Positions 2 through 36,798 of a stretch of DNA of 57,713 nt are shown piece after piece. The notes under the pieces are model-generated. The model ran no database searches. It worked only from the letters and a program-made list of their open reading frames with translations, and had not been told where the DNA came from. Origin of the DNA: Candidatus Omnitrophota bacterium (GTDB lineage Bacteria > Omnitrophota > Gorgyraeia > 2-02-FULL-51-18); NCBI GenBank assembly GCA_016197155.1, contig JACPWF010000032.1:1-57713 (forward strand), read 5' to 3'. Positions within the stretch are counted from its first letter, which is position 1, and the number at the start of each line of letters is the position of its first letter. Made by a program: the position numbers and the translations under genes.

Positions 2-3000
2 CTTGACCAAAGACAACTCACAGCCGAAGTCTACGGCCACACCACCCTCCTCGGTCCCTTCAAAGACTCACAAGGAACCATCATTGGCTCTCTCTCAAGG
101 CATGAGCCCAATGACAGACCCGCTTTTTATGAGGTTCGTCTCTTAAACGGACAGCTGAGAACCGTTTCCACTTTTCGTTTCCCCGGTGACACGCAAGACC
201 GTTTGAGCGTGATGATTGATGCCCCACTCGTGGGGAAAAGACAGTCGGCTTTTGAGGTAGTCATCTTGCCGAACGGCGGATCATTCATGAGGCAAACCCC
301 CGTCACTCAACTCATTTACCGTTCCTATGATCCCAAAACCGGTGATGCGTTTCTGGAGTCGTGGTTAGGCGACAGCCGCACCCCTCGCCCCCGTAAACCC
401 GCTCGTACCTACGTTCGTGGCGGAAAAAATTATTTCCCGTCTGTTTTCAGAAAACCCGGCGAGAAAAAGGACCGTTATGCGGTATCGTTCGCGCCACCCA
501 AACCGGACGGGAAAACAGTGGCCGGTTCCCACGAACTGACCGTGTCCCCGACTCGTGTCAATGTCTCACGCGGAACCGTCGTCCAGTCCATCCTTCACGG
601 CTACAATCCGGATACCCGTGAAGCCCTGGTTGAGTCCTGGATCGGCCCGAAGGGCTCCAAGCGCCCCACATTCAACAGAACAGTAACCTACGTGGACAGG
701 TTGGGGACTTCCCTTCCCGGGATTATTTTTTATTCAAGGGGTTCTTTTAGGGAACGCTACGCGGTTCTTCTAAAAAAAACTGTAGCGGACGGAAAGACGG
801 CAGTGGGCGCCCGGGAAGTATGGATAGATCCCAAGACAAGAAGGATTCGCATATCGCCACAGCCTGTTGTTTGGGCCATTTATCACAGTTACAATCCCAG
901 AACCGGAGAGGCTTCGATGGAATCGTGGGTGGGAGGCAAGGGGACCAAACCTGCCGTCGGGGTCAACTATAGCGTCATCGATGACAACGGCGTCAGTCAC
1001 CCCGTTTTCAAAGATGACGCCGGCGTTTATTCCATGCCGCCGCTTAATACCAAACTCGATGCGCCCGGGAAATCCACCATCACTTACGTCGTCAATTTCC
1101 GGACGCGTCAGATATCCAGTCAAAGAGTCGCCAAAGTAGTTGTCGTTAAAAATTATTTTCGCGGCGGAGTGGGAATCGGCCAGATTTTGAAGGTTCTGCC
1201 GTTCCCGTTAAACGGCGACGTTTATCACGTGCTGACACGGATCGATAACTTGAGGATGCCCGTCCACGTGGACGAAGACGGAAAGGTTTCCCTCATTTCT
1301 CCCCGCGCCCGGCTACAAAATGCCGGTGACACGGCGATCGCTTACGTGGACGATCCCCGGACCGCGGGGCCTGATTATGCCAAGCGGGTGTCCAAACTCA
1401 CCGTCGAAAAGGTATTCGTGGAAAATGGCAGGGTGACGGGCCGTATTCTACGCATCGAGCCGTTTGGCGCCGAATACAAGGGTGCAATTTTTAGGGATGT
1501 GTCGGATGCCAAAGGGGTCTTGCGTTACCACGTTCGCCTGAAGGACATTCCGTCCATGATTTATGAAATTGCGCGTGACGATTCGGGTGTCGAGCTTGGA
1601 TCAAACAACTATTATTATAACGACCGCGCGAAAAAAATGAGCGAAATCAAGGGTTCTTTAGTGGGAGCGACAGGTTTCCTGCCTGAGAAAGATGAGAAAG
1701 GAAATCTCAGAGGCATAGAGATCCGTACTAGCGAACCCATTGATTTTCGGGCGCTGTCCAAAGAATACCGTGAGAAAATCCGCCGGCGCGGAAGAGGCGC
1801 CAGACTCGCCCTATCCAAAAAAGCGGTCCTGCTCGGGATGAGCGCCGTTTTACTCGCGGTTATGAATCACCGTCTCTTTTTCCCTCCGAGGGTTCCGAAG
1901 CCATCCGGATCTTCGATCAGAGCCGTGTCTTCCGAAGACTGGTTAAGAAATTACGATCCCAATAAACGGTCGGACAGCGAGGTCATTTTTCAAGCGGACC
2001 CCGCCCGTCACGTTTTAACGGTGAAAGTTTTGATGCCGGACGGGAGCCACCGAACGCTGGAAAAGAAAGACCGCGCCGCCATTAATTATCAGCCGACGGA
2101 AAACACCGATAACCGAAACATCGCCTACTACACCTACGGGCACATGGCCGAGCTTGTGGCCGCCCTACTTTCGCCGGATGACCCTATTTTCCAGCATCCG
2201 GTCCTGCGCCGCCTGGGCATTCCCCGCGAGAGAGGCCAAGATCACGCCAAAATTTTACGTCAAATGGGCGTGCGCGTGCTTCGCTTGTATTCCGAACCCG
2301 ACCGGGACCAAAACCCATACGACTACGAAGGTTTTAATCTCATTATGGATCATGTCCATGAGGAACGGCATGGCGGGTTGTCTGTGATCGGCACTCACTG
2401 GGCGGGACTCGGGCCTTCTTTTCCGGGTTTTCCGGCCCTCGGCAAGAACACAACTGAAACCCGCGAAGCCGTGAAGCGGAGCGTCGAGCGCATCGTAGAA
2501 CAATACGCCGCAAAGCCCTGGTGGTTAGGCATGATTCTGGGAGTGGAAAATAACGCGCACGTGACAGGCGGTTTTTTAAGGCGGGAAGAGGATGGATATG
2601 AGTTAAGTCTCGCGCAACACTACGAATTTCAGGCATGGCTTGCCCAGGCCGCCAAGAAAAAAGAAGAAGAAATGAGCGGCTCTTTGCGTTTAAAGATCCG
2701 GCACCCCTATGGCATCGGCAACGCCTATCTGACAGACCAAGAGGCCGGTTTAATAAAAGCGGCGAACAACCGATACGGCAACCCCATCGACTACATTGCC
2801 GGCACGTTTTATCGGGGGAACGGGATTATTCCAGGCGATCCTCGCGATATCGTCCGTGTCATGCGGGCCTCCGGGCAAGCGGGTTTGCCCTTCATGCTCG
2901 CGGAAGTGGGAGCTCCCGCTGTTTCGCCCACAGACTCTGCTCCGTTGGAATACTTGAATAAAGTTTATGCTTCCCTTCTTCCCGATCAGCAATGGGTTTA

Positions 3001-6000
3001 CGCCGTCGCTCCTTTTGAGGCAACCTCCGAAGAATGGAAAGGGGGTCACCCGAATGAAAAACGCTTTGGAATCATGAACAATCAAAACCGCGAGCGTTAT
3101 TTTGAAAAATGGATTGGTATCTCACCGGCCCGTTTGGCGCGCCAGATTTTGTTTTCCCGATTCAGTCCGCTCATTTGGCTGGGTTTATTTTTATTCGCCG
3201 GCACACTTTTGGGTCCCCCGGTATCGGCTCAAAAAGTTTCCAACCAATATTATCAGAGCAGATTTAGTAAAAAATTAGGAGGCCAGGTCCTGTTCCAACC
3301 TGCCGGTGAATCCATCAAAGCCTCATTCTTCAGCGCACCCACACCCACAGGCCGCACCGTCATTTACAACTCCAAACGCTATCCCGAAGCGCGGAGAACT
3401 GATAAAAGGAACGGCCGCGTCCAGCGTCTGGCCATCGTGGGAGAGGGGGAAGAAAAAGGCAAAGAGGTTGCCCGGCTCGACCTTCTGAAAGGGGAGGCCG
3501 AGGTGCTGGAATCCGAGGGGTTCTCCCACGTCCACGATTTTTCCGTCAACCCCACTAACCCCTCAGAAATCATCATCGCCGGACCCAAGAAGCTAATCAT
3601 TTTGTCAAAAAAAGACACCCAGGGCCGGATCATCGCCAGAAAGACCCCTGTTCGCGCCGATAAAGCGACGCGCCACAACCCCGAAGGGCTGGATGATGAC
3701 AACGCGTGGGACGAAGCATACACGTCTGAAGGCAGTATGGTCGAAATCGCCCGCGACGGTTTTGTGACAACTTACGATCCAATACACGAGGGAAAAACCG
3801 GCGTGCTGAAACCTCTAAGAAAGTATCGTCTCGAAAGCGGACCTGGCGGCAGGACTGTGAGGGTTCTTGTCAGACAAATCGAAGTTTCTGTTAGTTGGCA
3901 GAGGAAAATTATTCATACAAAAGAAATTCCCGTGGATCCGGACGGAGGACAGATCGAAGAAACAGCCGCTAATGAGCGGATCGATCGTGAGATGACCTTT
4001 GACGGAGTGCTTTTGGTTGAAATCCGCCGATGGAAAAGTCCGTCCGGTCGGCGGATGTCTCAACGTACTTTTTACGATGAGGCCGCCTCACGGGCCGTCG
4101 GAGGGCAGGTGCCCTCCCGTTCCGATTTTTCCGTCGACGGCGTGATTTATTCCAAAACCACTCATCAAAACCCTGTTTCCATGGAGACGGCTCTTGGAGG
4201 AAAAATAGACCGCCTTGATCCTGAACTGCGGGCGTTATGGACTGCTCAAGGGATAAGAGACAACACCATGATGCAGCCGGCGACCACGGTGACCAGGAAT
4301 GGGATAGGGTCGATAGAATACCGAAGGGTCGGGGACAAGACGGGGCGGTTGGTTGTCACGAAGGCCGGGGGCACCCTGAGCCTCGCCGTGGATTGGGATT
4401 TGGAAAATCACCCGGTACACAGTTTTAAAATAACACCTGGCGGCCACGTGACGCATGAATATATTTCAGACGGCAAGGGAACTTTGGCGAGTTTTTTCTC
4501 GTCGACTCGGAGGGGTCAGAGGGACAAACAAACATTTCTCTCTCTCACCAACCGCTTACGCGGTCTCAACGACAACACAGAGTTAAAAGTCGTCCGGGAA
4601 ATTCCGTGGGTTCGTCGAACCGTCAATGGAGAAATGGAATATACCCGTCCCACAAGCCCCGAGGCCGAGACCAGAATATTCTATCTGTCCCATGATCCGA
4701 TGGGCTTGCCGGTATGGTCCGAACGGGTGGTTGCAAATGGGGATTTGCATCGCACGGTCTATTTTCCCGGAAAACGCGCTCTAAAGCTTTCCAACAAGAG
4801 CAAATTTTTCGGAGGCGCCGGCTACGCATATTGGCGCATCCGCCTGGGGGTGGCTTATGGTTACAATCTGCCGCTGGATAGGGCGCGAGGCAACGAAACT
4901 TTCAACGCATCTTCTTTCGACACGTTTGATTTTGAAATCAGAGGTCAGTCCGGAGGGGAAAAATACCAGGTCATTTTTATCGACGCGCAAGGGCGCCGGG
5001 CGGTTTGGACGCCGGATCCGGCGGGCAAAACCTATCAAGTGGTCAAAATACCCTTGGCGGCCATGAAACGAAAGGGAGTGAATCTCGAAAAACTCATCAA
5101 TATCGTGTTTTCGTTTGGCGGTGATGTGGGCAATCCAAAAGGCGCCACCCTCTACGTCAATGATTTCCTTTTCCGTTCACCAAACCAGGCTGTTCCCACC
5201 AGTCTGTTTCGAGGTCCCGTCGAATCTCTGGGCGATACAGACTCGCATATTTTCACCGCGGAGACTATCAACAACAGTGCTTCCTCGTTGGGATTGGTTT
5301 CCTCCTATACGTACAACGCCTCACGGACACGATCCGAACGGGACCCGCTTTTGGTCTCGACAACGGACTATATTCTCACCGATTCCGACGGCAACCACTA
5401 CTTCCTTTACGGCGAGGAAGAAAGCCAGGTGAGTTTTGTCGAAGTGAAGAGTTCGGAAAAGAAGCTACTCTATCGGATCTATCTCAATGGTTACGTGAAG
5501 GACAATTATTTAAGCATCCAAAGGGAGCGCCATTACTTCGATGCGAATGAATTGCCCGTTTATGCGGTTGACGAATTTACCGGCGATCTTTTGTGGATAG
5601 TTTATACCCGCCACCTTCCCAATGGAGACACGGTGGACTGGAAGAGGCGTGTTCACAACGGCCACTTAACACAAGAGGAACAGGTCAAGCTCTTTGGTCC
5701 GGACGGCAACCAGCGTTGGGAGAGGTATCTCGGGGATCAATTCGATCTTGTCCGAGGCAAACGCGTGCCGCGCCGGATCTCCTGGACTCCTTTCATTGGC
5801 CCCGAACCCGACGGAGTTGCCTGGAATCGGCGGCTCCAAGAAGTTCGTGGTTTGATGAACGAGCGTCCCCACTCCTCTCTTTTGAAAAAGGGCTTAATCG
5901 GAGAAGAAGGGAAGACCCCACAGCACCTGCCTTTTCAATTGCCCGAGGAGCTTGTGAAGGCAGGCGAATGGATTTTGGCGGCGGGATTTTTTATTTCATT

Positions 6001-9000
6001 GCTGTTGGCGGGAATCGTATGGAGTAAGCGGAGAAACCGTGCGTATCGTTTCTTGGAGGGGGATGCCGAAGCCGGTGTTCGGCGAGCGGCCCACGATCGT
6101 TATCTTCAGTCACGGTCCGAAAGACAGGGGGCTCGGTTATCCAGGCACACTTCTTTTCAGGAAATTGAGAATCGCTATCGAAGCGTTTTGGAGACTTATT
6201 GGAATGAATTGTACATTCCGGAGGCTGACAGTTCCCTATTACCAAAAGAAAAATTGATTCAAGCCGTTTTGAGGGACCTGTATGCGTCCTGGAACCGGCC
6301 CACCTCCGAACGATCCATTACTGCCTTGGCTGGCGACGGCCATTATGTGATCATGCCCAGCGTGCGGGAAGGCGTGGACTGGGAACTCGTGCCGCTACTG
6401 GATCATTTCCGTGCGCAGGCGTTCGGCATCGTTACCGAAGAATTGGCCGGAAATTTTCATTTTATTGAGTATCTTGTCGAAAAAAGCAAAACGATGGAAG
6501 CGGCCCGTATTTTGGAAATGGTCAAGGCGTACAAGGCCTTCTGGTACGACTGGATTCAAGGCCATGAGTTCCCACTCATCATGAACAAGGTCATCGGGGA
6601 CGAAGAAGCGTTCAGTTTCGAATGGTTTGTGGTTTTCTATGAATACCGCAGTCGTTTTGGTTTGGAAGAGGGGGCGGCCCGGGATCTCGATCAGGATCCG
6701 TCCCTCGTTCACAAAAGGCTCATGGAAGAAAACGAACGGGCCAAAACCGATTTCAACATGAGTCTTAGAAGCCCCCTGCGCCTCGAATTGGCGGGTTTTG
6801 TGAAGGCCCAAATTCCGCATGTGTTTCAGAACCCTCTGCGTCACGCGTTTTCGCGGGAAAATATCCAAAGCTATTTTGCGCAGGGGCCTACGGCGATGCT
6901 GGGACATGTGTTCTGGTTTACCGTCACAGCATTTTGGATACTGACGCTTTACGTTCAGTACCCTCAATGGGGGCACTATCTTATTCCTTTTATCCACTCC
7001 TTTTTCACGGACATCCAGGGCTTTACCCATCCGGCCGGCCCGGTTGTCATGGGCGGCCTTATCCTGACTAATCTTTATTTCCTCGAGAGGGCTACGCGGA
7101 ACCTGCGACATTTTAGGGAGTTTTTCACCGTCTTGGCGGGCACGGGACTGGTGTATTTTATCAACGATCTTTTTCATCTTCATTTTTTTCCCGAATCTGC
7201 TTTGGGAGGGACGCTTTTGGTCATGCTCGCCACGATTCCGATCTGGCTTTTTACCAAACTTCTTTATGCTTTCCCCGCCTGGACACTCATGGCGGGCGTC
7301 GCTTTCGTGGCCGGAAAAATTAAGAGGCTAAACACGTTTAAAGGCGATTCACAGCTTGGAAAAGTGGGATCCTACTTCGGGAAGCAATTAACAAAAATCG
7401 CCGAGAAACTGAACGGGCAAGGCGCCCGGTTGACACCCGCGGATGTTGAGAGGGAAATTCTCTCCGAGTTTAGGGATTTGGCCAATGACTTGTACAAAAA
7501 ACGGCTTATTGGCTCTGAGGATCTTGAGCGGATGACAGGGGTTCGGGATCTTGCGGGTATAGATAGTCTGGACTTAGGGGCCCTTCCGGTGACACGGGCC
7601 AAGGACCGTTTGAAACGCTGGGCCAATCGGGTGTCTATCAGGGGGCCGTCCGTCCCGTTGCCCTGGCCTGAGCTTCCCTCCATGTGGGTACGCCTGATCT
7701 GGAAGGGAGACAAGTTTGCGTACTCATGGGATGAGGTAGATAAAAAGGAGACATCCGGCGTCACAATTCTGCAAAAGGTGAGAAGGGCCTATGGAAATGG
7801 GATGGATTTCCGCTATCTTATGCAATTTCTTGTGGACAAAAATCTTATTACGCGGCAAGAGGCGATAGCCGCCATTGATTCAGGAATTGACCAACCAATG
7901 GCCCCCATTCTTCTTGAAGGCAAAAGCGAAGAGGCCCGCCAAGCCATCGATGCTGCCATGATGAGCTGGGTCAATGACAGGCTCCAAACGGTAAAGAAAA
8001 CAATCGATGATACGATGCAGATCCGTGAGGCTTATGAAGCGGCGTTTATTCGATGGTACCGCTCCGAGAATGAAGACGCGGATCCCTTACCGGAACAGGT
8101 GCGGCAGGAAGTGGGTCTCAAATTTAAATTTGTGGTGGGCGTCGCTCAATCGGAGGCCAGACTCAGGCGCGACGAAACCGGTGACAGCGGGCGCGCGCTT
8201 GATTATATGCGGGCGATTCGTGACCTTAACCTTGTCACTGTTTTTTTCCCATTACAGTCGCTTTCCCGGCCTAATCCAAAAGTCGACGACTCCGTGGGCA
8301 GTTACAAGGGGGTGATGCTTTCTTATATCCTCGGTTCCGGAGAAGTCGCCGGCTATGATCTGGCGGTCTTCGTGGACGCCGATACCGAGGTAAACCGCGA
8401 GGATGCCTTCGCTTACCTTCCTTCCTCGGAGCGGTTTCTGGAAAACCCAAGGCTTGGAATACTCAATTTCCGGCAGTACATCTTTAACACCGAGTATAGT
8501 GATCAGACGCGCGTGACCGGCGTGGCGATTGGAACGAAATGGGGTCCGTACCTCAGGGCTCGCTCTTTGGTGGGTCAGCAGGGTTTTTACGGCCACGGCT
8601 CCATATTGCGCACGCGCTATCTTTGGACATTGGTAGGGTCCCAAATGGACAAAGTCGGCGAAGACCTGCCTATTTCTTTCTCCATGAGAATCGGTTTGAA
8701 GCGAATCACACCGAATTTGGCCGAACACCTGGGTAGCGCAGAAGTGGAGCAGGACGAGCTTGTTTGGATGGGTGAGGGGATCGAAACCACTCATGGGGAT
8801 TATCAGGAACCCACCACGAAGAAATGGGCCTCGGCCACGGAACAGGTAGTCAGAAGCCTGATTTTCAGGATTTTTAAAAGGGATCCCTACGTTCCCCGAG
8901 CCGAGAAAGACGACGTGGGGCTCGGCGTCGATTTCTACCGCGTCAACAGCTGGTTTGCCGTTTCCGCTATACTGCTTTACAACATCAGCATTTTCTTTCT

Positions 9001-12000
9001 CGGCATCAGCGCGGCCTCGATCTTTGAAGGAAAATTCGCGCTTCTAGGAGTGGCGGCCGCCCTGTCCATCAACTGGCTTCTCGTCGTTCAGTTGTATGAG
9101 ACGCAGGGGACGGAATTGCGGAGAGGAGGTTGGTTTGCGCCTTTTATTGCTTTGATCCGGTTCCTCGTTCCCGGCGGTTTCAAGGCTTTTCCCCCTCTTA
9201 TTTTTTCGCAGGCCCATGGTGTCCAGATGTCCCGCGACCGGGACGCGCGCTACACAAAGAGCAAAAAAGGCCCCGGGGTAGCCATGGATGTGTGGGAAAA
9301 CACTTACGCCAAAGGAAGGTGGGGGATCATCGTTTCCCTCATCAATATCCCACTCACCCTGATTCAAATGGCGTTGGGTTTGATCAACCAATACGTTTAT
9401 GACACCCACATCGGTTTTCAGGCGTTTGATCCCTGGCTTTATCTTTTCAATTTTCTGTACCTGATGGTGAATTGGGTTACGTTGGTCATGCCGGCATTTG
9501 CCAACCCAACCCCAAACCGCAAACAGAAGTGGGTGGATCTGCGCCGCCATATCCGACAGGGCTACCAGGATATCGGCGCGGGAGTTTGGAACTGGCTGTC
9601 AGATTTCGGCCGCCGGGTTTTGGGGCACCACTACGATGTCAGGCCTGTGCATACTCCCGAACAACTTGGCGACGAATTTACCAGAAGGGATTTGTTGGGC
9701 ATGAGATTGATTGGTCCCTCTACGCCCAGGGGATCGGATAAATTCAATGAACAGTCCTATGCCCTCACGGCTGCCTTTCAATCCGGCCTTGATCCTCTGG
9801 CGATCCGCCGTGAATTTGCAGATAGCCTGAGAGATTCAGGCCTTTTACCCGATGCATTGTACGATCCTGCACAAGAAACAGTTACTTCCCCCACGAGGAG
9901 AGGAGGAAGGAATGGCGCGCGCCTGGCCATGGGATCGTCCCCGGAGAGTGGTTGGGAAGATCGGCAAATTGAACAGGCCCTTCTTCCTTACCCGAGGAAT
10001 CCTGCCACATCGTCTCAACTGAGGGATCTTTTCCGGGAGGGGCCCAGTACGCTTTCCGGGGCGTTTAAGGCGTCTGAATTAACCCGCAGGGACGCGGGTG
10101 ATTACGCGACTTATGTGGAGAGAGTGGAGGACAATTTAAAACGTGTCACCGTTCACGATCTGGAGGCTGTGGCGGACATGCTTTTACACGAGCAAAAAAT
10201 CGTGTCTGAAATGAAGCGCGTGATTCACGATACTCGGCCGGACATGCAGGACTCTATTATCGAAGAGAAGGCGTTGGAGACCGTGAGAAAATGGGGTCTT
10301 GTCTATCCTTTCCTGGTTCAGGAGCTGGAGAAAGCCTTTGCGATAGAACGCTCACTGCAGACGACCATGCTTATCAGCGAAGCCGTGAGAGGGGCCGTGC
10401 CCACAGATTTTGAACTTTTGAAGGCAAAAACTGAATTCAAAGAGCGAAAAGTTTCTCCGGTCGCCTCTCGATCTGACGCGGCCCTTCGTTTTACCCGGTC
10501 TGCCTATTATTACCGCCGCCTGGACGGCACGTTCCCGCGGAATGACTGGACCTCCGTCCAAGAGTTGAAGGTGGCGCAAAACGCTCTCCGTTTTTACTGG
10601 CAGATCGAGCAAAGATCCCTGCGTGGGCGTCAAGATGTGCCAAAGGAATATCAGGATAATCCGTTTACCAAGATGAATGATATCGCCAATTACGTGACCT
10701 ATGAAGCGTTGGCGGGAGAAGACGGAAATTTTGATGCGGGCCCGCTCGATGAGGCCAGGTTCCGTCTCAGAGTGCGTCAGGCCATCGCAGGCAATGAGTT
10801 GGATCTCAATAATCCCACCGTCTTGGACGCCGCTACCGGCAACCTGTCCAAATACACTCAAGGTGTTTTGAGGGAAGCGGCCTACAAGCTTACCGCCCCC
10901 GACGTGGGGGGAGATTATTTCATTGATGAGTTGTTCCATCGCTACATCACTGATGCCGGGAGGCCGATCACGCTTGCCTACATCACGGACAATAACGGTG
11001 AAGGGGTGATTGATCTTCTGTTTGTCCGGGAAATGCTGAGGACCAACCCGAACTTAAGAGTGGTTTTCATACCCAAGTCCGTGCAGATTCGGAATGACCT
11101 TTCTTGGATGGACGTTGAAAAAATATTGGATTTTGACGCGAGGCAACCCGAGGGTCGTCAGCTTTTAAAGGAACTGCGCGAGGAACGGGACAAGCCGGAG
11201 GGGACAAGAAGGTTTGAGCTCTTCAAGGAAGGGGCCGAAATTCAGGGCATTGACCCCGTTCGCATGACCCGGCCTATGGCCGAGATTCTTTTAAAAGCGG
11301 ACGTCATTATCGGAAAAGGCCAGGCCAACGCCGAAGTGCGCGGTTGGAAAAAACCAATTTATTATTTGGCCATGGTGAAGGGGCGCGTTGCCCAGGCCGC
11401 CCATGGTATTTGTAACGGCAGAAAAGATTCAGTCGCCTTTTCCATCCGGTACGGCGCCGACCATTATGTGGACTGGGCGGACAGCGCGTTTAAACGTTAC
11501 GCGGACCCCGTGGCTCGCGAGGACACTCCCGTGGGCCGTCAAACGACACGCGAGTTTATTGACGCTTTGATCCATTGGGAAAACCGGGATGAGTATATTG
11601 CCCAAAGGGACGCTTGGGAAACAAAGCGGGACCAAGCAGTGAAAGAAAAGAAAGCCGGTCGGCCGGAGGCGCTCAGTCGATTGAGCAATCCTCCTGTTCC
11701 ACAATACACAGTCAACCCCGCTTATACGCGTCTTTTAAATGAACAGGGCGGCGATGAAAAGGCGACCTATGAAAGGATTATGGAAGAGGCTGACAGACGA
11801 AAGAGGACTTTTGCGGAAATCGTTGCGACAGTCCAGTCGCTCGGCACGGGCCCATCCCCCCGTGTCAGTTACAATCCAAGCTATCAGAGGGTTATTGACC
11901 ACTACAAAGATAATGAAGAAGCGGCCTTCCAGTCGGTACATGAGAAAGTGAGAGAGTATCGGCAATCTTTTGCGGATTCACTTGCCCGCTGGAGCGCGGA

Positions 12001-24000: not shown

Positions 24001-27000
24001 TCGCCAGAACGGTATCTATGGGGTGCTCGGTTTGGACGAAGGGAAATCAGAGATCATGCGAATTTCCATGAACAACGGGACGCCTGTGGACGATGAGGGG
24101 AAAGAGCTGACACCGCCGTTCAAAAATGCTATTAGCGGGGCATTAATTATGAGGGCCGGACAAAATAAAATTGATGATATTCAGTTTGGATTTGACCAGA
24201 GAGAAGATTTAGATGACCGTTTTGTGAGCGATGACGGCCGTTTTAAACAGATGCTAGTGCCACAAAGCACTCAGGACCTTGGGTGGCCAAGAAACACCAG
24301 AATGCCGATGAGCTCATGGGGTATTACGGAAACCGACAAGCTTGGTTTTGTCCAGGTTTGGTCGGAATCGGAAGACGTGCCGCACACCGCAAGCCAGATC
24401 AACATCGACGAGTTATATCAAATACTGGGGCATTTTCGTTGGAAGGACGCGATATTGACCGGAACCAGCGGAGATATTTCTGCCGAAGTCAACGGACAGC
24501 ATTATTCCGCAAAGGCTCGGTGGAACTCAAGTCTCCAAAGTTTAATCGGCAAGCATGATAAAGGGCCCGATCATGGCTACCGGCGTTTGGGCCGTGTTAT
24601 GTTCTTGTATCCCAAATCCGCCGCCCGGCTGGCTAGAGAAGTCGGAGGCTGGAAGTTGGAAGCTGGAAGAGCGCTTCGAGTCATTTTAATGGGACTGGCG
24701 CTGTTTTTCCCGGCCGTGGGCGCGCAGGCGTCGGTGACAAAATACACTCCATACGGCCGCGCGGAGATCACCGCGAGCAACAGCACGCTTCGCACGATTG
24801 GCGCAAAGGCGGGACTGAATCCGTTGGCTTTTCGCACGATGCTTTACCGCAATCGCAGTCAGATGCATCGTCTGGGGATCGGGAAGGATCTTACCGGAGA
24901 GGAAGTGGAGGTCATGCCAGCCCGCCGCGTGCGAGAACTGCTTAGAAAACATTTAAAAGAGAATGAAAAAGTTTACGTCCCCTCTTTCCGCCCCGGCGGG
25001 GAAGGGAATCTCGTCCAAACGGCTGTAAAGAAAGGGACGATTACTTTTAGTCAATACCGCGATGCGGCGGAGACGGGCCGCGGGCCTTCTTTGAGGAAAA
25101 CAGCGAGGAAAACAGCCAAGGTGAACCAGTCGTGGCTGGGAATCGTCTGGTTGCCCGTAGCCGTAGCCGTAGCGGTTGCCGTGATGATCTTTGGAATGAT
25201 TTTGGCCCGCCGGAAAATTGTCCCGGCAGGCCCGCAGTCTGTCATTATCACTCCGCCTCGCGTGTCACGAAATCCATTGCCGCTCGCGAAGATCAACCAG
25301 AATAAGACTCTTGGACTGTGGATCTTTTTGACGGCGGCCTTTGCGGGATTGGTAGAATTATTTGGTTCCCTGGCGGCCAAGCGGCTGATGGAAAAGAAAC
25401 CGCAGGGCATCGGGCCCACAACGAGCGGAGCCTCATTCCGCGCGGCGCCGGCGCGGTCGCCGTTTGAAGCGGCCTGGATGGACAGGCCGTTTACGACGGA
25501 AATCCTGGCCCGTTCGTTCGGACTCCCAAGGAGCGAGGTTTACCGCGCTTTTCGGGCTGGTCTTTTTGGAAATATTTTGGAAGAGGAAGCCAATGGATCG
25601 TTCCGTTTCAGAAAAGGCCTGCGTTCGGCGGATTTTGAGGCCATTCAAAACATTCCCTCTTGGCAGTTCTGGAATCCTTACCGCCGACTCAATCTCACAT
25701 TCCTGGTCAGAGTCAGACTCCAGGCCATGTGGAAGGCGACGTCTTCGGATTGGATGGTTGAGGTCTTCGCGGCCGTGATACGGGAAAATCTTGGCCAGCT
25801 GACGAATGCGGAGCTCCGTTCGGCCCGCTTTGACCTTTTGTTGGAAAAAATATTGGAAAAGAAACTGGCAAACGCTCCATTGACCGCGTATCCCATGGAT
25901 TTGGTGGTGGCTCTCAAAGGACGCTTTGACCATTTGAATCCCGAAGCCGGCGGCCTTCTGGCGTCTCTCACCCTTGATCGGCTCCAAGCGTACCTTCGTG
26001 AGCAGGGGAAAACTCTCCGTGAATCCACGGTTTCGTTGATTAAACGGCGGTATCAGTCACGCGACCAGGCGATAAGACAGCGGATTCGAGACCGTATTCT
26101 GGACATCGAAAAACAATTCGCGCGTGTCCAAGCAGAAATGAGCATGGCTCGTTCTCTGGCGGTTTCACCCGCCGCCCGGCTGGCTCAGAGATCCTTCGGT
26201 CGCCTCCGGCAACCTCCAGGCGACAGATTAGTCGTGGGAATCGAAGCGGCTGAAAAATCAACTTTTGCGGCGCGCCTGGCGGCCGTGAAGGAACTCCTCG
26301 GATCAAACTTGTCCCGTGGTGTCCGTTTCGAGCATGTCCAGTCCGTCGGGCCGGAGAGTGTGGGCGCGACAGGCGCGCGGTTTGCTTATTTTGTCGGTCA
26401 AGACGTGCCGCTGGGTGATGCGGCCGCGAGGCTGGCGGTTTTGAAGGGCGTGCGGGGGATACTCCACCAAGCCAATGCGTTCGAAACGAATGAAGAAGCG
26501 GCCCGGATCGGCATGCTTAAGTTTATGAGAGACATTATGGAAGGACAGCGGGGCGCAAGGCTGGCCATCGGCGATTTAAGACAAGCCTTGTCTGAGGTTG
26601 GAAAAAGTTTGCCTCCACCGGCCCGGATGGCCGTTGTGAACGACGGATCGCGGCTGGCCCTTTTGAGCGGCACGACGCCCATTATTCGGCATCTGGAAAC
26701 TGCCCTCAGTGCGGAAAACAATGAGACGGCCATTGTGTCCGCTCAAGCGGCCGCGCGGTCGGCGGTGGATTATTTACAGCCTTCAAAACCCGGTTTCATT
26801 TCAAGAATTTATAAATTAATCGGCGCCCTGCGCGCGCTTGGCCGGAGCTTTGCCGTTGAACTTGGCGCGGACTTGAGTGGCGAGGTGACGATCGTGACGA
26901 CTCAGGCCGTGATTGACGGGCGCGAGTCTGCCTATCAAGATTCGAGAAATGAACTTTTGAAACGCTTGGAAGCACTGCGCACTCTTAACGTGAGAGAATT

Positions 27001-28457: not shown

Positions 28458-29597
28458 ATGACTCCCTATTTTATGGCCCTCGAAAAGAAACTGAAAATTC
28501 TCCACCTGACCTCTCACCTCGACATCGGAGGCATCACGAGCGTCCTTTTGACGTTGTCGAAGGCCTTCCGTGAAAACGGCCACGAGGTGGCGATTTTGTC
28601 CGGCGGCGGAAGCTGTGAAGAGGCGCTACGAGGGGCCGGCGCGCGCGTTTACACCTTCTCCATCCGCACCAAGAACGAACTTTCTCCGAAACTTTTTTTT
28701 GCGCTTCCTAAAATTATCCGTCTGGTTCGCGAGGAAAGATTTAATATTCTCCATGCCCATACCCGCGTAACGCAGGTTTTGGCCGCGATGGTTTCGCTGT
28801 TTACGAAAGTGCCGGTGGTGACCACGGCGCATGGTTTTTATAAACGCCGGCTGTTCAGGAAAATGTTTGGCGCCTGGGGAAAACGCGTGGTGGCCATCAG
28901 CCCTCTTGTGGCTGAGGAGCTTGAAAAAACGCATCGGGTGCCGCGTTCGAAAATTCGCATTGTTTATAACGGCATGGACATCGCGGATTTTAAAAGAAGG
29001 ATGATGGCTCACAATCCTGAATGGATCAAAAAAGAACTGGGGATTGATGAAAAAATATTTGTGATCGGGTCTATTTCAAGACTGGTGCACGACAAGGGCC
29101 AGCATTTTCTGATTGAAGCCGTAAAAAAATTAAACAAAAAACATAAAAATACCATTCTCGTTATCGTGGGTGATGGCCGCGAAAAGAAATCGCTCGAAAA
29201 ATTAGCCTCAAAACTTCCTAAAAATCAGGTGAAGTTTCTTTCCGCTCAGCCGGACATCACAGGCATTCTTTCGGTTCTCGACGTTTTTGTTCATCCGGCG
29301 ACGTTTCGTGAGGGGTTTGGTCTGACGCTTTTGGAGGCGATGACGGCGAAGATTCCGGTGATTGCGACGGACATTTGGGCGCTCAACACGATTATTCGAA
29401 ATGGAGTAAACGGCACGCTGGTTGCTCCCAAAAATGCCGATGAAATCAGCCGTGCGATAGAATCCGTGATCGAGCATCCCGAGACGGCAGGCTCCGTGGC
29501 GGAAAATGCGTTTGAAATGTGCTCCAAACTTTATTCGGCCGAGCGGATGGCCGCGGAATTGGAAACCGTGTACGGCGAGGTGTTGAATGAGCCTTAA
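28458..29597 (+). CDS. Glycosyltransferase family 4 (start possibly ATG 28473)
   Basis: LKILHL..DIGG, ILHAH, EGFGLTLLEAM, GVNGTLV. Confidence 0.93.
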   Translation: MTPYFMALEKKLKILHLTSHLDIGGITSVLLTLSKAFRENGHEVAILSGGGSCEEALRGAGARVYTFSIRTKNELSPKLFFALPKIIRLVREERFNILHAHTRVTQVLAAMVSLFTKVPVVTTAHGFYKRRLFRKMFGAWGKRVVAISPLVAEELEKTHRVPRSKIRIVYNGMDIADFKRRMMAHNPEWIKKELGIDEKIFVIGSISRLVHDKGQHFLIEAVKKLNKKHKNTILVIVGDGREKKSLEKLASKLPKNQVKFLSAQPDITGILSVLDVFVHPATFREGFGLTLLEAMTAKIPVIATDIWALNTIIRNGVNGTLVAPKNADEISRAIESVIEHPETAGSVAENAFEMCSKLYSAERMAAELETVYGEVLNEP

Positions 29598-30426
29598 AAA
29601 TTTGAACGTCGTTTCTTTTGAAAGCCGTCTCTCCAAAACAATGGGGGATCTCATTCAGCTTAACGGCGGCCGTCCGATTCTCGCGCCGGCGATGAAAGAA
29701 GTGCCGCTCGAAAATAATCCCGCGGCTTTTTCATTCGCGGAAAAAATTTTAAAGGGCGAGATCGACACGGTCATTTTTTTGACGGGGGTCGGAACGAAGG
29801 CCCTCATGGCCGCCATCGAGACGCGCCACAAAAAAGAAATCGTCCTCGAGGCGCTTCGAAAAACCTGCGTGGTGGCGCGCGGCCCCAAACCCACGCGGGT
29901 TCTGAAGGAATGGAATGTTCCGATCCAGGTCGCGGTGCCCGAACCCAACACCTGGCGGGAAATTTTAAGTTCGCTGGATCAATATAAAGAAAAATATCCC
30001 GTGAATGGCCGCCGCGTGGCCGTGCAGGAGTACGGCGTGCCGAGCCCCGAGCTTGCGGCGGGATTGGAGGAGAGGGGCGCCGACGTGCTCCCCGTTCCGG
30101 TTTATCGCTGGGCGCTCCCGGACGACACCGGACCGCTTCAAGGCGCGGTCGCGATGATTTGCGAAGGAAAGGCCGACGTGGTGATCTTTACGACGTCGGT
30201 GCAAATTCAGCATCTGTTTCAAATCGCCAAAGAAATGGGCGCAGGGGAGAAATTAAAAAAGGCGTTCGCTCAGACTGTTGTGGCATCCGTAGGCCCCGAT
30301 TGCACTGAGGCGATCCGGTCATTCGGGATCACGGTGGACATTGAGCCTACGCACCCGAAGATGGGGCCGCTCGTCACGGAAACGGCAAACAAGGCCGAAG
30401 AAATTTTGAAACGAAAAAGAAAATGA
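29587..30426 (+). CDS. hemD: Uroporphyrinogen-III synthase
   Basis: FESR, FLTGVG, ARGPKP, AVQEYG, PVYRW, FTTSVQ, SVGP; lies in a hem cluster. Confidence 0.9.
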
Positions 30427-31457
30427 AAGAAAGTATTTTCCTGAAAGCCTGCCGGCGCCAGAAATCGCCGGTGACACCCGTCTGGCTCATGCGCCAGGCC
30501 GGGCGCTACATGAAGGATTACCGCGCGATCCGCGAGAAAACCCCTTTTTTGGAAATTTGCAAAAATAAGGACCTGGTCACCGAGATCACCGTGACCGCGC
30601 AGGCAAAAATCAAAGCGGACGCGGCGATTATTTTTGCGGACATCCTGCTCATCCTCGAGTCCTTCGGGCTGGGGCTCGATTATTTGAAAGGGGACGGTCC
30701 CGCGGTCGCTCGCCCGATCCGCGCCGGAGGGGACGTTCAGAATTTACCGGAGGTTAATCCCGCGGAAAGTCTCGGATTTGTTTTGGACGCGATCCGGCAG
30801 ACGCGCTCGGCGCTCCCGAAAAATATTCCCCTCATCGGTTTTGCCGGCGCGCCGTTCACGATCGCGTCCTACATGATCGAGGGCGGCGCGTCGAAAGATT
30901 TTCGGGAAACGAAAAAGCGGATGCTGTCGGACGAGCCGCTTTGGAATCTTTTGATGGAAAAAATCGTTCGCGCGACCGTTCTTTATTTGAATGAACAGAT
31001 CCGCGCGGGCGCCGACGCTCTACAGCTTTTCGACAGCTGGGTGGGCTGTCTTTCGCCGGAGGAATACAGGCGGTTCGTTTTGCCGCACACGAAGAAATTA
31101 ATCGAAGGAGTGAACGGCGGCGCACCGCTCATCCATTTTGGGACGGGCACCGGAAAGTTTCTCGATCTTTTGCGCGATGCGGGCGGGGACGTGATCGGCG
31201 TCGATCACCGCATCGGGCTTGGGGAAGCTTGGAAGAAGATCGGCTACGACCGCGCGGTGCAGGGAAATCTCGATCCGAATATTTTGGCGACGGGATCTCT
31301 TGAGGAGATCCGGCGTGAGGTAAAAAGAATTTTAGCGGAAGCCGAAGGCCGGGCAGGGCACATTTTTAATTTAGGGCACGGGGTTCTCCGGCAAACACCG
31401 GTGGAAAACGCGATTGCCGTTGTGGAAATGGTGCATGAGTTTAGCGGAAAGTCATGA
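30423..31457 (+). CDS. hemE: Uroporphyrinogen decarboxylase
   Basis: [31 protein letters not shown]. Confidence 0.97.
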
Positions 31458-32338
31458 GTAAGACGGCCATTCTCCTCATCGGTTTCGGCGGTCCCGAGCG
31501 CCGCGCGGATTTTGAGCCATTTTTGCGAAGCGTGGCTCAGGGGACAAATATTCCCGATCGCCGCATCCGGGAGGTCCTGCGCCACTACGAGCTTGTCGGC
31601 CCGTCGCCCTACAACGCTCAGGTTTTCCGGATAAAGGAAGCGCTTGAAAAACGCGCGGGCGCGCCTGTTTTCGCCGGTTTCCGCCATTCGGCGCCGTCCA
31701 TTGAAGAGGCCTGCGAGCGGCTAAAAAAAGAAAGAATCGAAAAAACGGTTTGTTTTGTTTTGGCGCCTTTTCGCTGTTATGCGAGTTTTGAAAAATATAA
31801 GGCGAAGGTCGACCCGTCGCTGAATATTGTTTTTACCCCGCCTTTTCACAATCACCCTTTGTTCATTGAGGCGCAGGCGGAACAGATCGGACCGGGTCCG
31901 GTTGACGATGCGACATTTTTTATTTTCTCCGCGCATTCCATTCCGCAGAAAATGGACGACGAAAGCGCTTATTCACTGCAATTTCGTGAAACGGCCTCTT
32001 TGGCGGCCAAGAAGGCAGGCCTCAAGCATTGGGAGATTGCTTACCAGAGTAGGAGCGCCCGCCCCCGCCTGCCAGATGGCGGGCAGGGGAATCCCGCCGA
32101 ACCCTGGCTCGAGCCGAGCCTTGAGAAGGCATTGGAGCGCGTCGATGGAAAAAAATTCAAAACGGTCTGCGTCATTCCCGCGGGATTTTTGGTGGAAAAT
32201 ATGGAAATTCTTTATGACCTGGACATTGAATTCCGAAAAAACGCCGAGGGAAAGGGATTCAGCTACTTCCGCGCTCGGACCGTGGCGGATCATCCCCGAT
32301 TCATCGAAATGATGGGGCAAATGCCATGCCAAACGTAG
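31454..32338 (+). CDS. hemH: Ferrochelatase (HemH/CpfC)
   Basis: [24 protein letters not shown]...[19 protein letters not shown]. Confidence 0.93.
32064..32087. repeat. REP-like palindrome inserted in-frame in hemH
   Basis: CCCGCCTGCCAGATGGCGGGCAGG lengthens the QSR...PWLEP loop (PRLPDGGQG). Confidence 0.7.
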
Positions 32339-33762
32339 CCATCATCGGCGGTGGCATCGCGGGCCTCGCCTGCGCCCACCGTCTTCGGGAGCTGAGCGCT
32401 CATCCTGAGCGAAGCGAAGGATCCGCTCTTGAATTTAAAATATTCGAATCGGGCCCCCGGCTCGGCGGCCCGATCGAGACGGAAAAAAGGGACGGGTTTC
32501 TTTTGGAGAAGGGGGCCGACTCTTTTATTTCCGAAAAGCCCGCCGCGCTCCGGCTCTGCGAACGTCTGGGAATTTCATCCACCGTCATCAACACCGAAGA
32601 AAATAACCGCCGGATCTTTATCGTCAAAGACGGGCGGCTCGTTTCTCTGCCGGAAGGATTTTATCTCGTGGCGCCCGGAAAGGTCCGCTCATTTTTGGCG
32701 AGCCCCTTATTTTCCTGGCCCGGCAAGGTCCGCATGCTTTTGGAACCGTGGGCGCCGCCGAAATATTCGGCCGACGAGGAGACCGTGGCGGCCTTTCTTC
32801 GCCGGCGGTTCGGAACCGAGGCGCTCGCGCGGGTCGGCCAGCCGATGCTGGCCGGCATTTACACGGGCGATGCCGAGCGGCTCAGCATGAATGCTGTCAT
32901 GCCGTGGTTTCTTGAGCTCGAAAAAAAATACGGCAGTGTCACGCGCGGGTTGAGAAAGAACCTGAAAGACAAAAAAAGGGATTGGGACGCCGTGCGCGGG
33001 CCGCGCTACAGCCTTTTTCTCTCGCTGAATGAAGGGATGGGTGCGCTCATCCGGGCCCTTGTTTCGAAATTGCCGCCCGAATCCGTTTTTCTGAACTGCC
33101 GGATCAAAAATATTTCCTACGATCACGAAAAAAAGGTTTGGGTACTCCTCGACGAAAAAGGGACGCGCCACACCGCGGACGCCGTTTGCGCGGCGGTTCC
33201 TCCGCGCGCCGCAGGGGATTTTTTGAATATTCATAACCAATTGAATATAAATGAGTTATACCATTTCGAATACGAATCGCTCGCGGCGATTCACCTCGCC
33301 TACAAAAAAGAACAGTTTCGCCGGCCCCTTTCGGGTTTTGGATTCATCAGCCCCAGACTGGAGAAAAATCCGCTCATTGCCTGCACATTTTCCAGCCAAA
33401 AGTTTAAAAACAGGGCGCCGGAGGGATTTGAACTTTTGCGCGCGTTTGTGGGCGGCGCTTTCGGGAAAAATTTTTATGAAAAAGAAGACGCGGATCTCAT
33501 GGGCCTCGTCGGGGAAAATTTGTCGGCGCTTTTGGGCATCAAAGGAAGGCCGGTTTTCTCGGCGCTTCATCGCCATCCGCGTTCTATGGTACAATACACT
33601 CTCGGCCACCGGTCCCGGGTCGAAAAAATTCGGGAAGAGGCGCGCCGGTTCCCCCGCCTTTTTTTCGCCGGAAGCGCGTACGACGGCGTGGGGATTCCCG
33701 ATTGCGTCAAAAGCGGTGAAACGGCGGCTGAGGAGATTTTTGAAGGAGAAACCTATGCTTAA
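32326..33762 (+). CDS. hemY: Protoporphyrinogen/coproporphyrinogen oxidase (HemY family)
   Basis: IIGGGIAGL, EKGADSF, GIYTGD...LS, QYTLGH, GVGIPDC. Confidence 0.95.
   Translation: MPNVAIIGGGIAGLACAHRLRELSAHPERSEGSALEFKIFESGPRLGGPIETEKRDGFLLEKGADSFISEKPAALRLCERLGISSTVINTEENNRRIFIVKDGRLVSLPEGFYLVAPGKVRSFLASPLFSWPGKVRMLLEPWAPPKYSADEETVAAFLRRRFGTEALARVGQPMLAGIYTGDAERLSMNAVMPWFLELEKKYGSVTRGLRKNLKDKKRDWDAVRGPRYSLFLSLNEGMGALIRALVSKLPPESVFLNCRIKNISYDHEKKVWVLLDEKGTRHTADAVCAAVPPRAAGDFLNIHNQLNINELYHFEYESLAAIHLAYKKEQFRRPLSGFGFISPRLEKNPLIACTFSSQKFKNRAPEGFELLRAFVGGAFGKNFYEKEDADLMGLVGENLSALLGIKGRPVFSALHRHPRSMVQYTLGHRSRVEKIREEARRFPRLFFAGSAYDGVGIPDCVKSGETAAEEIFEGETYA
32399..32423. repeat. REP-like element inserted in-frame in hemY
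   Basis: CTCATCCTGAGCGAAGCGAAGGATC (ATCCT...AGGAT stem) encodes HPERSEGS in the loop after the Rossmann helix. Confidence 0.65.
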
Positions 33763-34363
33763 ACTCTATTGTTTCCCGCGATCCGGAAATTCCCGCGAAG
33801 TCAAAATTGTTCTCGCCGAAAAAAATATTCCCTTTGAGCCCGTCAATGTCCACGCCGACGAATCCGTGAAAAAATCCCCCGAATTTGTGAAGGCGAGCCC
33901 GAACGGCAAGGTCCCCGCCATCATCGACGGCGGCGTTTACATGAACGAAGCGTTTCTCATCAACCAATACCTCGACGAAAAATATCCGGCCCCGCCGCTC
34001 ATGCCCAAAACCGACCCGGCCAGGGAAGAGATCCGCCGCTTCGTGAACGCGATCGACAAAAAAATGGTTTTGAATATCGGGCTTCTCGTGATCGAGTGTC
34101 TGCTGAAGCCAAAGGGCGAACAGCGCGAGGATTTTAAGGAGAAAAAACGCGCCGAGGTGCTCGAGGGCCTGCGCGAAATCGACCAAATGCTGAGCGGGCG
34201 GCAATACCTGTTCGGCGATTTTTCGCTCGCGGACGTGGCCGTGACGCCGCACCTGGCCGCGCTTCCGGTTTTGGGAACGGGCATTCCTTCCGAATTTAAA
34301 AATGCCACCGCCTGGTTTGAGCTCGTGAAGGCCAGGCCCAGTTTCAAAAAATCCGGGGAGTGA
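33755..34363 (+). CDS. Glutathione S-transferase family protein
   Basis: RBS GAAGGAG, ATG 33755; MLKLY, SPNGKVP, YLFGDFSLAD. The longer 33251 ORF start overlaps hemY and is not credible. Confidence 0.92.
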   Translation: MLKLYCFPRSGNSREVKIVLAEKNIPFEPVNVHADESVKKSPEFVKASPNGKVPAIIDGGVYMNEAFLINQYLDEKYPAPPLMPKTDPAREEIRRFVNAIDKKMVLNIGLLVIECLLKPKGEQREDFKEKKRAEVLEGLREIDQMLSGRQYLFGDFSLADVAVTPHLAALPVLGTGIPSEFKNATAWFELVKARPSFKKSGE

Positions 34364-36192: not shown

Positions 36193-36743
36193 AAAAAACG
36201 GTTTTGGTGGCGCTGGCGGACGGATTTGAGGAGATTGAGGCGGTCACGCCGATCGATGTCCTTCGCCGCGCGGGGCTCGACGTGATCGTCGCCGGCGTCG
36301 GAAAAAAAGAAATCTCCGGCGCGCACGGCATCACGATCCGGGCGGACGTGATGCTCGAGGACTATCGGGATTTGCCGGACGCCGTTGTTTTGCCGGGGGG
36401 CATGCCCGGCGCGGACAATTTAAAAAAATCAAAAGCGCTCGGCGCGCTCCTTTCCAAAATGGATCAAAATAAAAAGTTAATCGGCGCCATCTGCGCGGCG
36501 CCCGCGCGGGTCCTGGCCGGCGCGGGCATTCTCGACGGAAAAAAAGCGACGTGCTATCCGGGCTACGAAAACGACCTCGGCGCCAAAACCACCTTTGTCA
36601 CCGACCGGGTCGTCAAAGACGGCCGTGTCATCACCAGCCGCGGGCCCGGCACCGCGCTTGAATTTGCGCTCGAGCTGGTTTGTGAGTTGACGGATTCCCG
36701 GACAGCCGGCAGGCTCGCCCAAGCGCTGATCGCGCGATCTTAA
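36189..36743 (+). CDS. DJ-1/PfpI (YajL/ThiJ) family protein
   Basis: GTG start overlaps the upstream stop; GFEEIEA, LPGGMPG, AICAAP, TSRGPGT. Confidence 0.95.
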   Translation: MKKTVLVALADGFEEIEAVTPIDVLRRAGLDVIVAGVGKKEISGAHGITIRADVMLEDYRDLPDAVVLPGGMPGADNLKKSKALGALLSKMDQNKKLIGAICAAPARVLAGAGILDGKKATCYPGYENDLGAKTTFVTDRVVKDGRVITSRGPGTALEFALELVCELTDSRTAGRLAQALIARS

Positions 36744-36763
36744 TTTTTAAAACCTCCCTGGAC

Positions 36764-36792: not shown

Positions 36793-36798
36793 TTACTC

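Follow-up and report, generated by a model that had tools for sequence, protein, structure and literature searches.

Contig JACPWF010000032.1 of the Candidatus Omnitrophota assembly GCA_016197155.1 (57,713 nucleotides (nt); this whole stretch is called the window) carries a giant open reading frame (ORF) of 9108 amino acids (aa) in which otherwise unrelated protein modules are joined by a short recurring peptide. The peptide, [G/A/P]-A-R-[L/M/F]-[A/S/T], has 21 matches at module borders, is selected at the peptide level and is followed at several borders by segments that resemble export signals; one of the modules that begin in this way has stand-alone homologues elsewhere in the phylum. On balance, we think it probable that the ORF and its relatives encode cellular polyproteins whose cleavage takes place on the cytoplasmic side, at G-A-R-L-A or beside it, and precedes export, each product being sorted by the signal it carries. 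In such a scheme, one frame would encode otherwise independent cytoplasmic enzymes, polytopic membrane enzymes, and exported proteins, all joined by the peptide [S/P/T]-[S/A/Q]-G-A-R-L-[A/S/T]. Cleavage at this peptide or directly beside it would occur on the cytoplasmic side, while the chain is being made or shortly afterwards, and ahead of export. Products with a Sec, lipoprotein or Tat signal at their new N-terminus would then be exported or anchored, and the rest would stay in the cytoplasm.

A recurring peptide at the module borders of a giant reading frame

The 21 motif copies of the window ORF comprise 16 with ARLA, two with ARLT, and one each with ARLS, ARFA and ARMA. Their codons vary synonymously (CGN and AGR for arginine, CTN and TTR for leucine), which points to selection on the peptide and excludes a repeated DNA element or a scar left by recombination. 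Nor does the Leu/Met position of the motif serve as an internal start codon, since CTC, CTT and TTA occur there too. In the source genome (G000), ARLA is found 47 times in the 22,525 aa of ORFs of at least 3000 aa (n=4, 2.09 per 1000 aa), compared with 56 times in 659,627 aa of six-frame ORFs of 100-300 aa and 0.07-0.09 per 1000 aa in those of 100-600 aa; the density in the giants is thus ~25 times that in the short ORFs of the same genome. A set of 28 giant ORFs from four genomes contains 335 motif sites, and GARLA, with 168 copies in 135,608 aa, supplies the commonest 4-mer and 5-mer of the set. The motif is also the commonest 4-mer in individual ORFs of 10,320, 14,048, 10,949, and 15,194 aa (genomes G026, G014 and G013). 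Over the 335 sites the consensus is [S/P/T]-[S/A/Q]-G-A-R-L-[A/S/T], and the residue that follows varies.

The motif coincides with the natural limits of known protein families. Behind a motif copy, a glycogen-synthase domain begins after 13 aa, an MBL/beta-CASP domain after 14 aa, and an HPr domain after 2 aa. The HPr domain lies within a 122-aa module and its conserved His falls at module residue 15, just as the active His of E. coli HPr is residue 15. When the window ORF is compared with the 10,320-aa ORF of G026, which belongs to another family, the alignments start and stop at motif copies, and the order of modules differs. Pfam assigns parts of the window ORF to unrelated families, namely ARMT1/DUF89, guanylate kinase (two copies), NUDIX, and FKS-type 1,3-beta-glucan synthase. 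The motif is a brief conserved sequence found where one independently folding product adjoins the next. The features of the window ORF are listed below by window position.

2-27328 (+): open frame, 9108 aa plus stop, open at the 5' end
1796-1810 (+): motif GARLA (aa 599-603)
1811-1870 (+): signal-anchor-like segment aa 604-623, LSKKAVLLGMSAVLLAVMNH, directly behind GARLA
1811-3139 (+): module 604-1046, an exported glycoside-hydrolase-like family without Pfam match, with stand-alone homologues
3125-3139 (+): motif PARLA (aa 1042-1046)
3140-3229 (+): Sec-type signal-peptide-like segment aa 1047-1076, PVSA then Q
3140-6142 (+): module 1047-2047, with signal, ~900 aa without hydrophobic segment, C-terminal anchor and basic tail
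5963-6025 (+): C-terminal anchor of module 1047-2047, aa 1988-2008
6128-6142 (+): motif GARLS
7421-7435 (+): motif GARLT
9914-9928 (+): motif GARLA
9929-12025 (+): ARMT1/DUF89 module (Pfam E=3.6e-21), no hydrophobic segment
12011-12025 (+): motif GARLA
12026-13489 (+): guanylate-kinase module 1 (Pfam); its alignment to the G026 giant stops at the motif
13475-13489 (+): motif GARLA, aligned to GARLA of the 10,320-aa ORF of G026
13490-14797 (+): guanylate-kinase module 2 (Pfam)
14783-14797 (+): motif GARLT, aligned to GARLA in G026
14798-15565 (+): NUDIX module (Pfam)
15551-15565 (+): motif GARLA
15566-15661 (+): 36-aa mini-module with weak hydrophobic stretch aa 5189-5220 (best 19-residue Kyte-Doolittle mean, KD19, 1.15)
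15659-15673 (+): motif PARLA
15674-15751 (+): Sec-type signal-peptide-like segment aa 5225-5250, PTSA then Q
15674-18136 (+): module 5225-6045, with signal, ~750 aa soluble, C-terminal anchor (nt 18005-18073) and basic tail
18122-18136 (+): motif GARLA
18137-21880 (+): FKS-type 1,3-beta-glucan-synthase-like module (PF02364, E=1.9e-56) with a motif inside
20915-20929 (+): motif GARLA within the glucan-synthase module
21866-21880 (+): motif AARLA
21881-23560 (+): soluble module; GHMP-kinase label weak (E=0.084, below cut-off)
23546-23560 (+): motif GARLA
24620-24634 (+): motif AARLA
24635-24730 (+): Sec-type signal-peptide-like segment aa 8212-8243, AQA then S
26171-26632 (+): C-terminal tail with six motif copies (nt 26171, 26267, 26372, 26423, 26552, 26618)

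Module 1047-2047, which has a weak match to CBM30 (E=0.024), is a paralogue of module 5225-6045. The six motif copies of the tail leave pieces of only 12-38 aa, and ORFs on contigs C7, C16 and C34 end in comparable motif clusters.

We estimated motif enrichment across genomes by comparing a degenerate DNA pattern for GARLA with the same pattern reversed. The counts are 96 versus 19 in G013 and 104 versus 21 in G014, and 9 versus 15, 12 versus 10, and 3 versus 1 in three genomes from other families of the class. The excess is limited to some genomes, so the motif is a trait of one clade and not of the whole class. Other lineages also have giant proteins with the glucan-synthase module, but these lack GARLA. 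Two of these proteins, P0032 (6521 aa) and P0142 (5601 aa), contain S-S-S-P-[L/I/V/A] six and eight times, respectively, and such repeats may be a different junction peptide of another lineage. Near aa 3225 of P0032, a double S-S-S-P copy is followed by a lipobox-like hydrophobic stretch ending in Cys. The AAQAL repeat of P0007 was considered as a junction motif and rejected, as it is a HEAT-type repeat.

At 27.3 kb, the window ORF is one of the giant genes of Omnitrophota (defined as ORFs of >20 kb from this phylum). Errors of assembly or reading frame are ruled out, as the frame is open over 27 kb, its domains are in frame and relatives have the same architecture. The 5' end is cut by the contig start. 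Nucleotides 1-141 of the window match sequence at the 3' end of another contig of this genome, C20 (112 nt, 99.1% identity; 58 aa and 83% at the protein level), with mismatches in the outermost bases of both ends. Contig C20 carries the conserved head domain described below, so the gene probably starts there, and a single gene of ~11,000 aa probably extends across both contigs. The source genome (1.43 Mb, 40 contigs, 93% complete) holds six further giant frames of 1397-6134 aa, several of them truncated at contig ends; together the seven giant ORFs amount to 28,784 aa, or ~6% of the 1.43-Mb genome. Among proteins of 5009-15939 aa, no giant homologue of aa 3300-5200 was found.

The 14,048-aa ORF on contig C1 of G014 combines two HPr domains with a PEP-utilising enzyme domain, a ribonuclease-like module of the MBL/beta-CASP type, a GNAT domain, two FHA domains, and a Fic domain. 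A phosphotransferase-system pair is thus apparently encoded within a single giant ORF.

Export signals behind the motif and topology of the uncut chain

A sequence-only reading of the window had proposed that internal signal peptides begin directly behind motif copies. All five proposed segments are present on the + strand, starting 0-16 residues after a motif. Four of them are clearly hydrophobic (KD19 1.7-1.9), and the fifth, aa 5189-5220, only weakly so (1.15). Three segments end in an AxA-like site, as that reading had it: aa 1047-1076 (PVSA), 5225-5250 (PTSA) and 8212-8243 (AQA). Measured from the motif these are 26-32 residues long, and by our heuristics and by reading, each has the basic n-region, the uncharged hydrophobic h-region of ~8-20 residues and the small residues at -3/-1 of a Sec signal peptide. 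The segment aa 604-623 has 8 K/R in the 15 residues before its helix and three after it; with this charge bias and no clear AxA or -3/-1 site, it reads as a signal anchor. The weak segment aa 5189-5220 resembles a duplicated version of the signal aa 5225-5250. Within window 15566-15751, the 36-aa piece between two motif copies and the signal that follows it have K, L, G and GRP[S/T] at similar spacing. At their ends, the true signal has TSA then Q and the duplicate copy SPA then RLA, a hint that the cut might precede Arg.

In the uncut ORF the five segments start at aa 604, 1047, 5189, 5225 and 8212, and an N-terminal location would hold only after a cut at the motif. The absence of such segments from cytoplasmic-type modules was borne out for ARMT1/DUF89, the two guanylate kinases and NUDIX, all recognized by Pfam, and the "GHMP" label given to a further module is weakly supported (E=0.084, below the cut-off).

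We counted a hydrophobic hit when a 12-residue window with a mean hydropathy of at least 2.0 lay within 40 residues behind a motif, and derived the chance level by circularly shifting the motifs along each ORF. Hits were found at 30 of 319 sites in the 28 giant ORFs, compared with 13.1 expected (P=0.0002), and at 26 of 298 sites when the window ORF is removed (11.6 expected, P=0.0002). A second set consists of 68 head-bearing ORF pieces from Omnitrophota records, with four duplicates dropped. Both sets together, minus the window ORF, give 41 hits at 613 sites (22.5 expected, P=0.0002). Hits are thus roughly twice as frequent as expected, an excess that is real in the first set and unconfirmed in the second alone. 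With a loose caller that is blind to the motif, a motif lies at most 30 aa upstream of 13 of 93 elements (6.9 expected, P=0.02), these elements being mostly buried beta-strands.

Signals of two other export routes occupy the same position. A lipobox follows a defined rule (PROSITE), with a Cys 15-25 residues from the N-terminus behind a basic and then hydrophobic stretch, and this rule, applied blind to the motif, identifies two signals in 135,608 aa. Both are in giants of G013 and both lie behind a motif (P=0.007), with the lipobox Cys 17 and 18 residues past the motif end. The Tat-like word RRxF[LIVM] occurs 24 times in 294,963 aa, four times within 10 residues behind a motif (P=0.0025). Seven of these words are accompanied by a hydrophobic stretch, and four of the seven sit 4-5 residues behind a motif (P=1e-5), in four ORFs of relatives. 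No lipobox or Tat signal was found in the window ORF itself. TatC is encoded in the source genome (208.7 bits) and LspA in all four genomes tested. That Sec, lipoprotein, and Tat signals all occur at one position would be difficult to account for if no N-terminus were created there.

Homologues that occur outside giant ORFs provide a comparison. A large protein collection holds one near-length homologue of module 604-1046, P0152 (395 aa), in which the initial Met is followed by two basic residues and then a hydrophobic stretch. The module is matched in 50 of the 401 genomes of the phylum. We inspected 19 loci, 11 of which are stand-alone ORFs of module size (412-473 aa) and 8 of which lie within long ORFs. 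All 11 stand-alone ORFs start with basic and then hydrophobic residues, and seven have a Cys directly behind, as judged by eye. In G018, a genome of the same family, a 13,992-aa ORF has GARLA followed by a different signal peptide (AIA then Q) and then the domain. Giants of lineages without the motif still have a signal-like segment ahead of the homologue (G084, G126 and G375), suggesting that internal signals may be general and the junction peptide lineage-specific. In one of these three giants, the Tat-like SRRDVL stands before the homologue. Module 5189-6045 has matches in 4 of the 39 genomes of the order.

Whether the uncut chain has a consistent topology was checked by hydropathy and the positive-inside rule, not by a trained predictor, and at aa 600-2050 no coherent single multi-pass topology results. 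The order in this region is a helix (602-620), an exported-type module, a helix (1057-1075), a second exported-type module, a helix (1990-2008), and a basic tail. No hydrophobic segments were found in aa 1-590, 624-1040, and 1080-1980 (best KD19 0.87, 0.92 and 0.83, respectively). Given that no stop-transfer helix separates modules 604-1046 and 1047-2047, the uncut chain can place only one of them outside. With cuts at the motif, both are textbook secreted or anchored proteins. Without cuts, the region aa 5185-6450 would have a consistent topology provided that the weak segment forms no helix. Together, the enrichment, the Tat and lipobox positions, the stand-alone homologues, and the topology support the proposal of the sequence-only reading that the motif exposes an export signal as a new N-terminus.

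These data also bear on a scheme in which the uncut chain as a whole passes through the membrane. In flavivirus polyproteins, internal signals are cleaved by the signal peptidase of the host, and in a similar manner internal start-transfer signals of the giant chain could be cut on the outside by signal peptidases I and II, the motif being a cytoplasmic linker that is cut later or never and plays no part in exposing the signals. The motif is always on the basic, hence cytoplasmic, side of its signal, as the positive-inside rule would have it; behind every C-terminal anchor come a basic tail and, next, a motif; and the stretch from NUDIX to glucan synthase is coherent uncut, with an even number of helices (six), if aa 5189-5220 forms none. 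The premise of the sequence-only reading that Sec signals act near an N-terminus is too strong in this context, as internal signal-anchors can also work within a chain that has no free N-terminus there. We nevertheless consider threading of this kind unlikely. Modules 604-1046 and 1047-2047 are both of exported type with no stop-transfer helix between them, and Tat exports folded proteins post-translationally, yet Tat-like signals stand 4-5 residues behind the motif in four cases. The scheme also leaves the motif copies between purely cytoplasmic enzymes unexplained.

If there were no processing at all, the ORF would encode one giant multi-pass membrane protein, and the motif would serve as a conserved linker or dock a partner such as a chaperone or scaffold. 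One many-helix polypeptide is the published view of Omnitrophota giants, as far as the accessible parts of that literature go. The view agrees with the window ORF taken alone, where the pairing of motif and hydrophobic hit is within chance (4 of 21 sites, 1.47 expected, not significant), and with the ~90% of motif copies that have no signal behind them. It is at odds with the incoherent topology at aa 600-2050, with lipobox and Tat signals exactly behind the motif, and with borders that are natural family ends (HPr, glycogen synthase), and we regard it as quite improbable. The accessible part of a 2026 preprint (10.64898/2026.06.07.730766) likewise reports that the single-chain view puts metabolic enzymes on the side of the membrane where they do not belong.

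Several observations weigh against cleavage at the motif, including the chance-level pairing in the window ORF, the scarcity of signals behind the motif and the capacity of internal signal-anchors to work within a chain. We infer the cut itself, the bond, its timing, and the enzyme. The second, independent set taken alone has hits at 15 of 315 sites (10.8 expected, P=0.13) and contains no lipobox signal. Our first caller, based on n-, h- and c-regions, scored 6 of 103 (1.8-3.6 expected, P ~0.15); it was too crude, because each helix yields ~20 positive start positions. All signals were called by our own hydropathy heuristics and not by SignalP or DeepTMHMM, and the genomes are related, so that the P values overstate independence. 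A motif also lies within the glucan-synthase module (nt 20915-20929), where a cut would split the enzyme. This copy is in a lineage-specific loop insertion of ~20 aa that separates the catalytic part, which is cytoplasmic, from the helices behind it; were the site used, the glucan synthase would work as two chains. In addition, one motif-bearing junction of the window ORF has no motif in the G026 relative. As for the ~90% of copies without a signal, mostly soluble modules behind the motif are as expected if most products are cytoplasmic.

The head domain and candidate routes to separate products

When the giant ORFs are cut at the motif and the pieces clustered, the 19 first pieces of 19 ORFs are homologous. 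Every giant with a known start begins with a signal that includes F-[L/F]-x-Q-D-[L/V]-x-x-A, followed by a domain of ~450 aa, here called the head. Its invariant residues are D92, H94, Q100, E122, E175, R461, G486-G487, and H489 (C20 numbering), which give the signatures D-x-H, E, and a distal GG[Y/F]H. Two copies in the source genome are located as follows.

L045:16-2286: head copy in contig C20
L044:1-1854: head copy in contig C37

Further relatives are at L013, L015, L021 and L030-L040. Head-domain relatives are recorded as Candidatus Omnitrophota or Omnitrophica; some automated records are labelled uncultured Planctomycetia and one Auribacterota. The first motif lies 60-170 aa past GG[Y/F]H in 52 of 68 evaluable head ORFs (21% expected), and most of the remaining ORFs have G-[S/T]-R-L-[A/S], G-G-R-L-A, or S-R-M-[A/G/S] in this place. 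In five genomes, head copies track motif enrichment, with 23 in G013, 5 in G014, and none or weak ones in the three genomes without an excess. The 23 head matches of G013 (2.2 Mb) correspond to ~20 ORFs of 913-13,272 aa, which total ~76,000 aa or about a tenth of the genome.

The structural model of the head core (pLDDT 91.4) weakly suggests a TIKI/TraB/erythromycin-esterase-like fold that is split by a long helical insertion. Its top six Foldseek matches are EreC (erythromycin esterase), BcR135, and HopBA1, all from the TIKI superfamily; these structures are listed as such in the accessible part of the paper on the MARTX effector RRSP. The same part describes RRSP as a site-specific endopeptidase with the catalytic residues E3900, H3902, E3930, and H4030. 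The D-x-H of the head, its E 28 residues on, and its GG[Y/F]H parallel this set of two His and two Glu, and the H-to-E spacing of 28 residues equals that from H3902 to E3930. The head differs from the TIKI superfamily in that its first acidic residue is Asp and not Glu, and in the helical insertion of ~300 aa that splits the fold.

The head is a candidate protease only, and several results count against it and against cleavage in general. The best Foldseek E value is 0.02 (range 0.02-0.3, none at or below 0.001), with a probability of 0.85 and a TM-score of at most 0.26. The Pfam matches to TraB/PrgY (E=0.031) and ChaN (E=0.12) were each obtained for one of 14 head members, and a sequence-profile search of the PDB with the head alignment returned only chance matches. 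The head has its own signal, so it should leave the cytoplasm and may never meet cytoplasmic sites; this and the many motifs between cytoplasmic enzymes count against it as the only enzyme. No Pfam peptidase family was found in the window ORF, in five other giants of the source genome, or in one 14,048-aa giant of G014.

A route that needs no protease is separation on the ribosome, in which the nascent motif would cause peptide-bond skipping or release and restart in the manner of the 2A peptides of eukaryotic viruses. The motif would then be a co-translational separation signal, acting by bond skipping or through a ribosome-bound cutter, and one ORF would replace an operon. Such a route would account both for the processing of sites that end up on either side of the membrane and for the failure to find a protease family, and it fits a motif selected as a peptide. 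The conserved part of the motif is, however, only 5-6 residues long, with a variable next residue, and no such mechanism is known in bacteria. We rate this route as very unlikely. If true, it would be the first StopGo-like mechanism in bacteria, with each module freed once made and then directed by its own Sec, Tat or lipoprotein signal.

The signal and head that all giants share at their start also raise the prospect of a delivered effector polyprotein, which, in the manner of MARTX toxins, would be secreted whole by its N-terminal signal and cut into effectors in a host or prey cell whose machinery reads the internal Sec, Tat and lipoprotein signals. Omnitrophota have been published as epibionts or predators with giants acting on other cells, as far as the accessible parts of these sources show, and TIKI-fold domains occur in MARTX toxins. 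Many of the modules are polytopic, however, with 4-10 helices that would be hard to pass across membranes; the enzymes look like housekeeping carbohydrate and nucleotide metabolism; and no translocation repeats or pore-forming region were seen. The chances of delivery seem slimmest to us.

No obvious processing enzyme is encoded by the genes downstream of the window ORF. The genes at nt 27379-38190 are ordinary in size (190-610 aa). They encode a GT4 glycosyltransferase, HemD, HemE, ferrochelatase, and a protoporphyrinogen-oxidase-like flavoprotein, as well as a GST, an acyl-CoA dehydrogenase, a DJ-1/PfpI protein, and a PD-(D/E)XK nuclease.

Comparison with known systems

Giant genes of Omnitrophota have been described before (West-Roberts et al. 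2023, 10.1101/2023.11.21.568195; Seymour et al. 2023, PMC10066038; and a 2026 preprint, 10.64898/2026.06.07.730766). The window ORF resembles those giants, as presented in the accessible parts of these sources, in its length of >20 kb, many helices, N-terminal signal, and mixture of enzymes such as starch synthase, NUDIX, and glycosyltransferases. It differs in how the product is viewed, as the published giants were taken as single proteins, or cleavage by C39 or S8 domains was raised as speculation. In the same parts, West-Roberts et al. (10.1101/2023.11.21.568195) state that information on cleavage points was lacking and that this blocked analysis, and the 2026 preprint (10.64898/2026.06.07.730766) deleted internal signal-peptide calls as artefacts and notes that a single-chain topology contradicts the metabolic content. 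The accessible texts, supplements not covered, contain no report of an inter-module motif, a head domain or internal signals in Omnitrophota giants, and we found no published cleavage site for these genes in the literature.

Whether such a gene makes one giant protein or many is an open question for Omnitrophota. The junction peptide, which comes with a conserved head domain and with export signals close behind it, would give exact, testable cut sites and lets giant ORFs be split into products in silico. If cleavage at the motif is true, a cellular organism would be using virus-style polyproteins for ordinary metabolism and envelope building, and the motif with its candidate enzyme would be a possible processing pair for the fixed-ratio expression of several proteins.

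The polyproteins of picorna-, flavi- and alphaviruses derive many mature proteins from one frame by means of short conserved junction sites, and internal signals of flaviviruses sort the products to either side of the membrane. The Omnitrophota giants differ from these in that they are encoded by a cellular genome, which devotes ~6% of its length to such genes, in that their products are metabolic or belong to the envelope, and in that neither a chymotrypsin-like nor a papain-like protease was found.

MARTX toxins differ from the giants in other ways. No CPD (C80) domain, RTX repeat, eukaryotic target or inositol-phosphate logic was found in the giants; the TIKI-fold domain of MARTX is an effector and not a processing enzyme. 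The likeness lies in the architecture, as MARTX toxins are also very large bacterial proteins with linkers between functional modules and are cut at these linkers. The MARTX CPD cuts after Leu, and a cut of this kind would fit the sequence of the junction peptide, in which ARL is followed by A.

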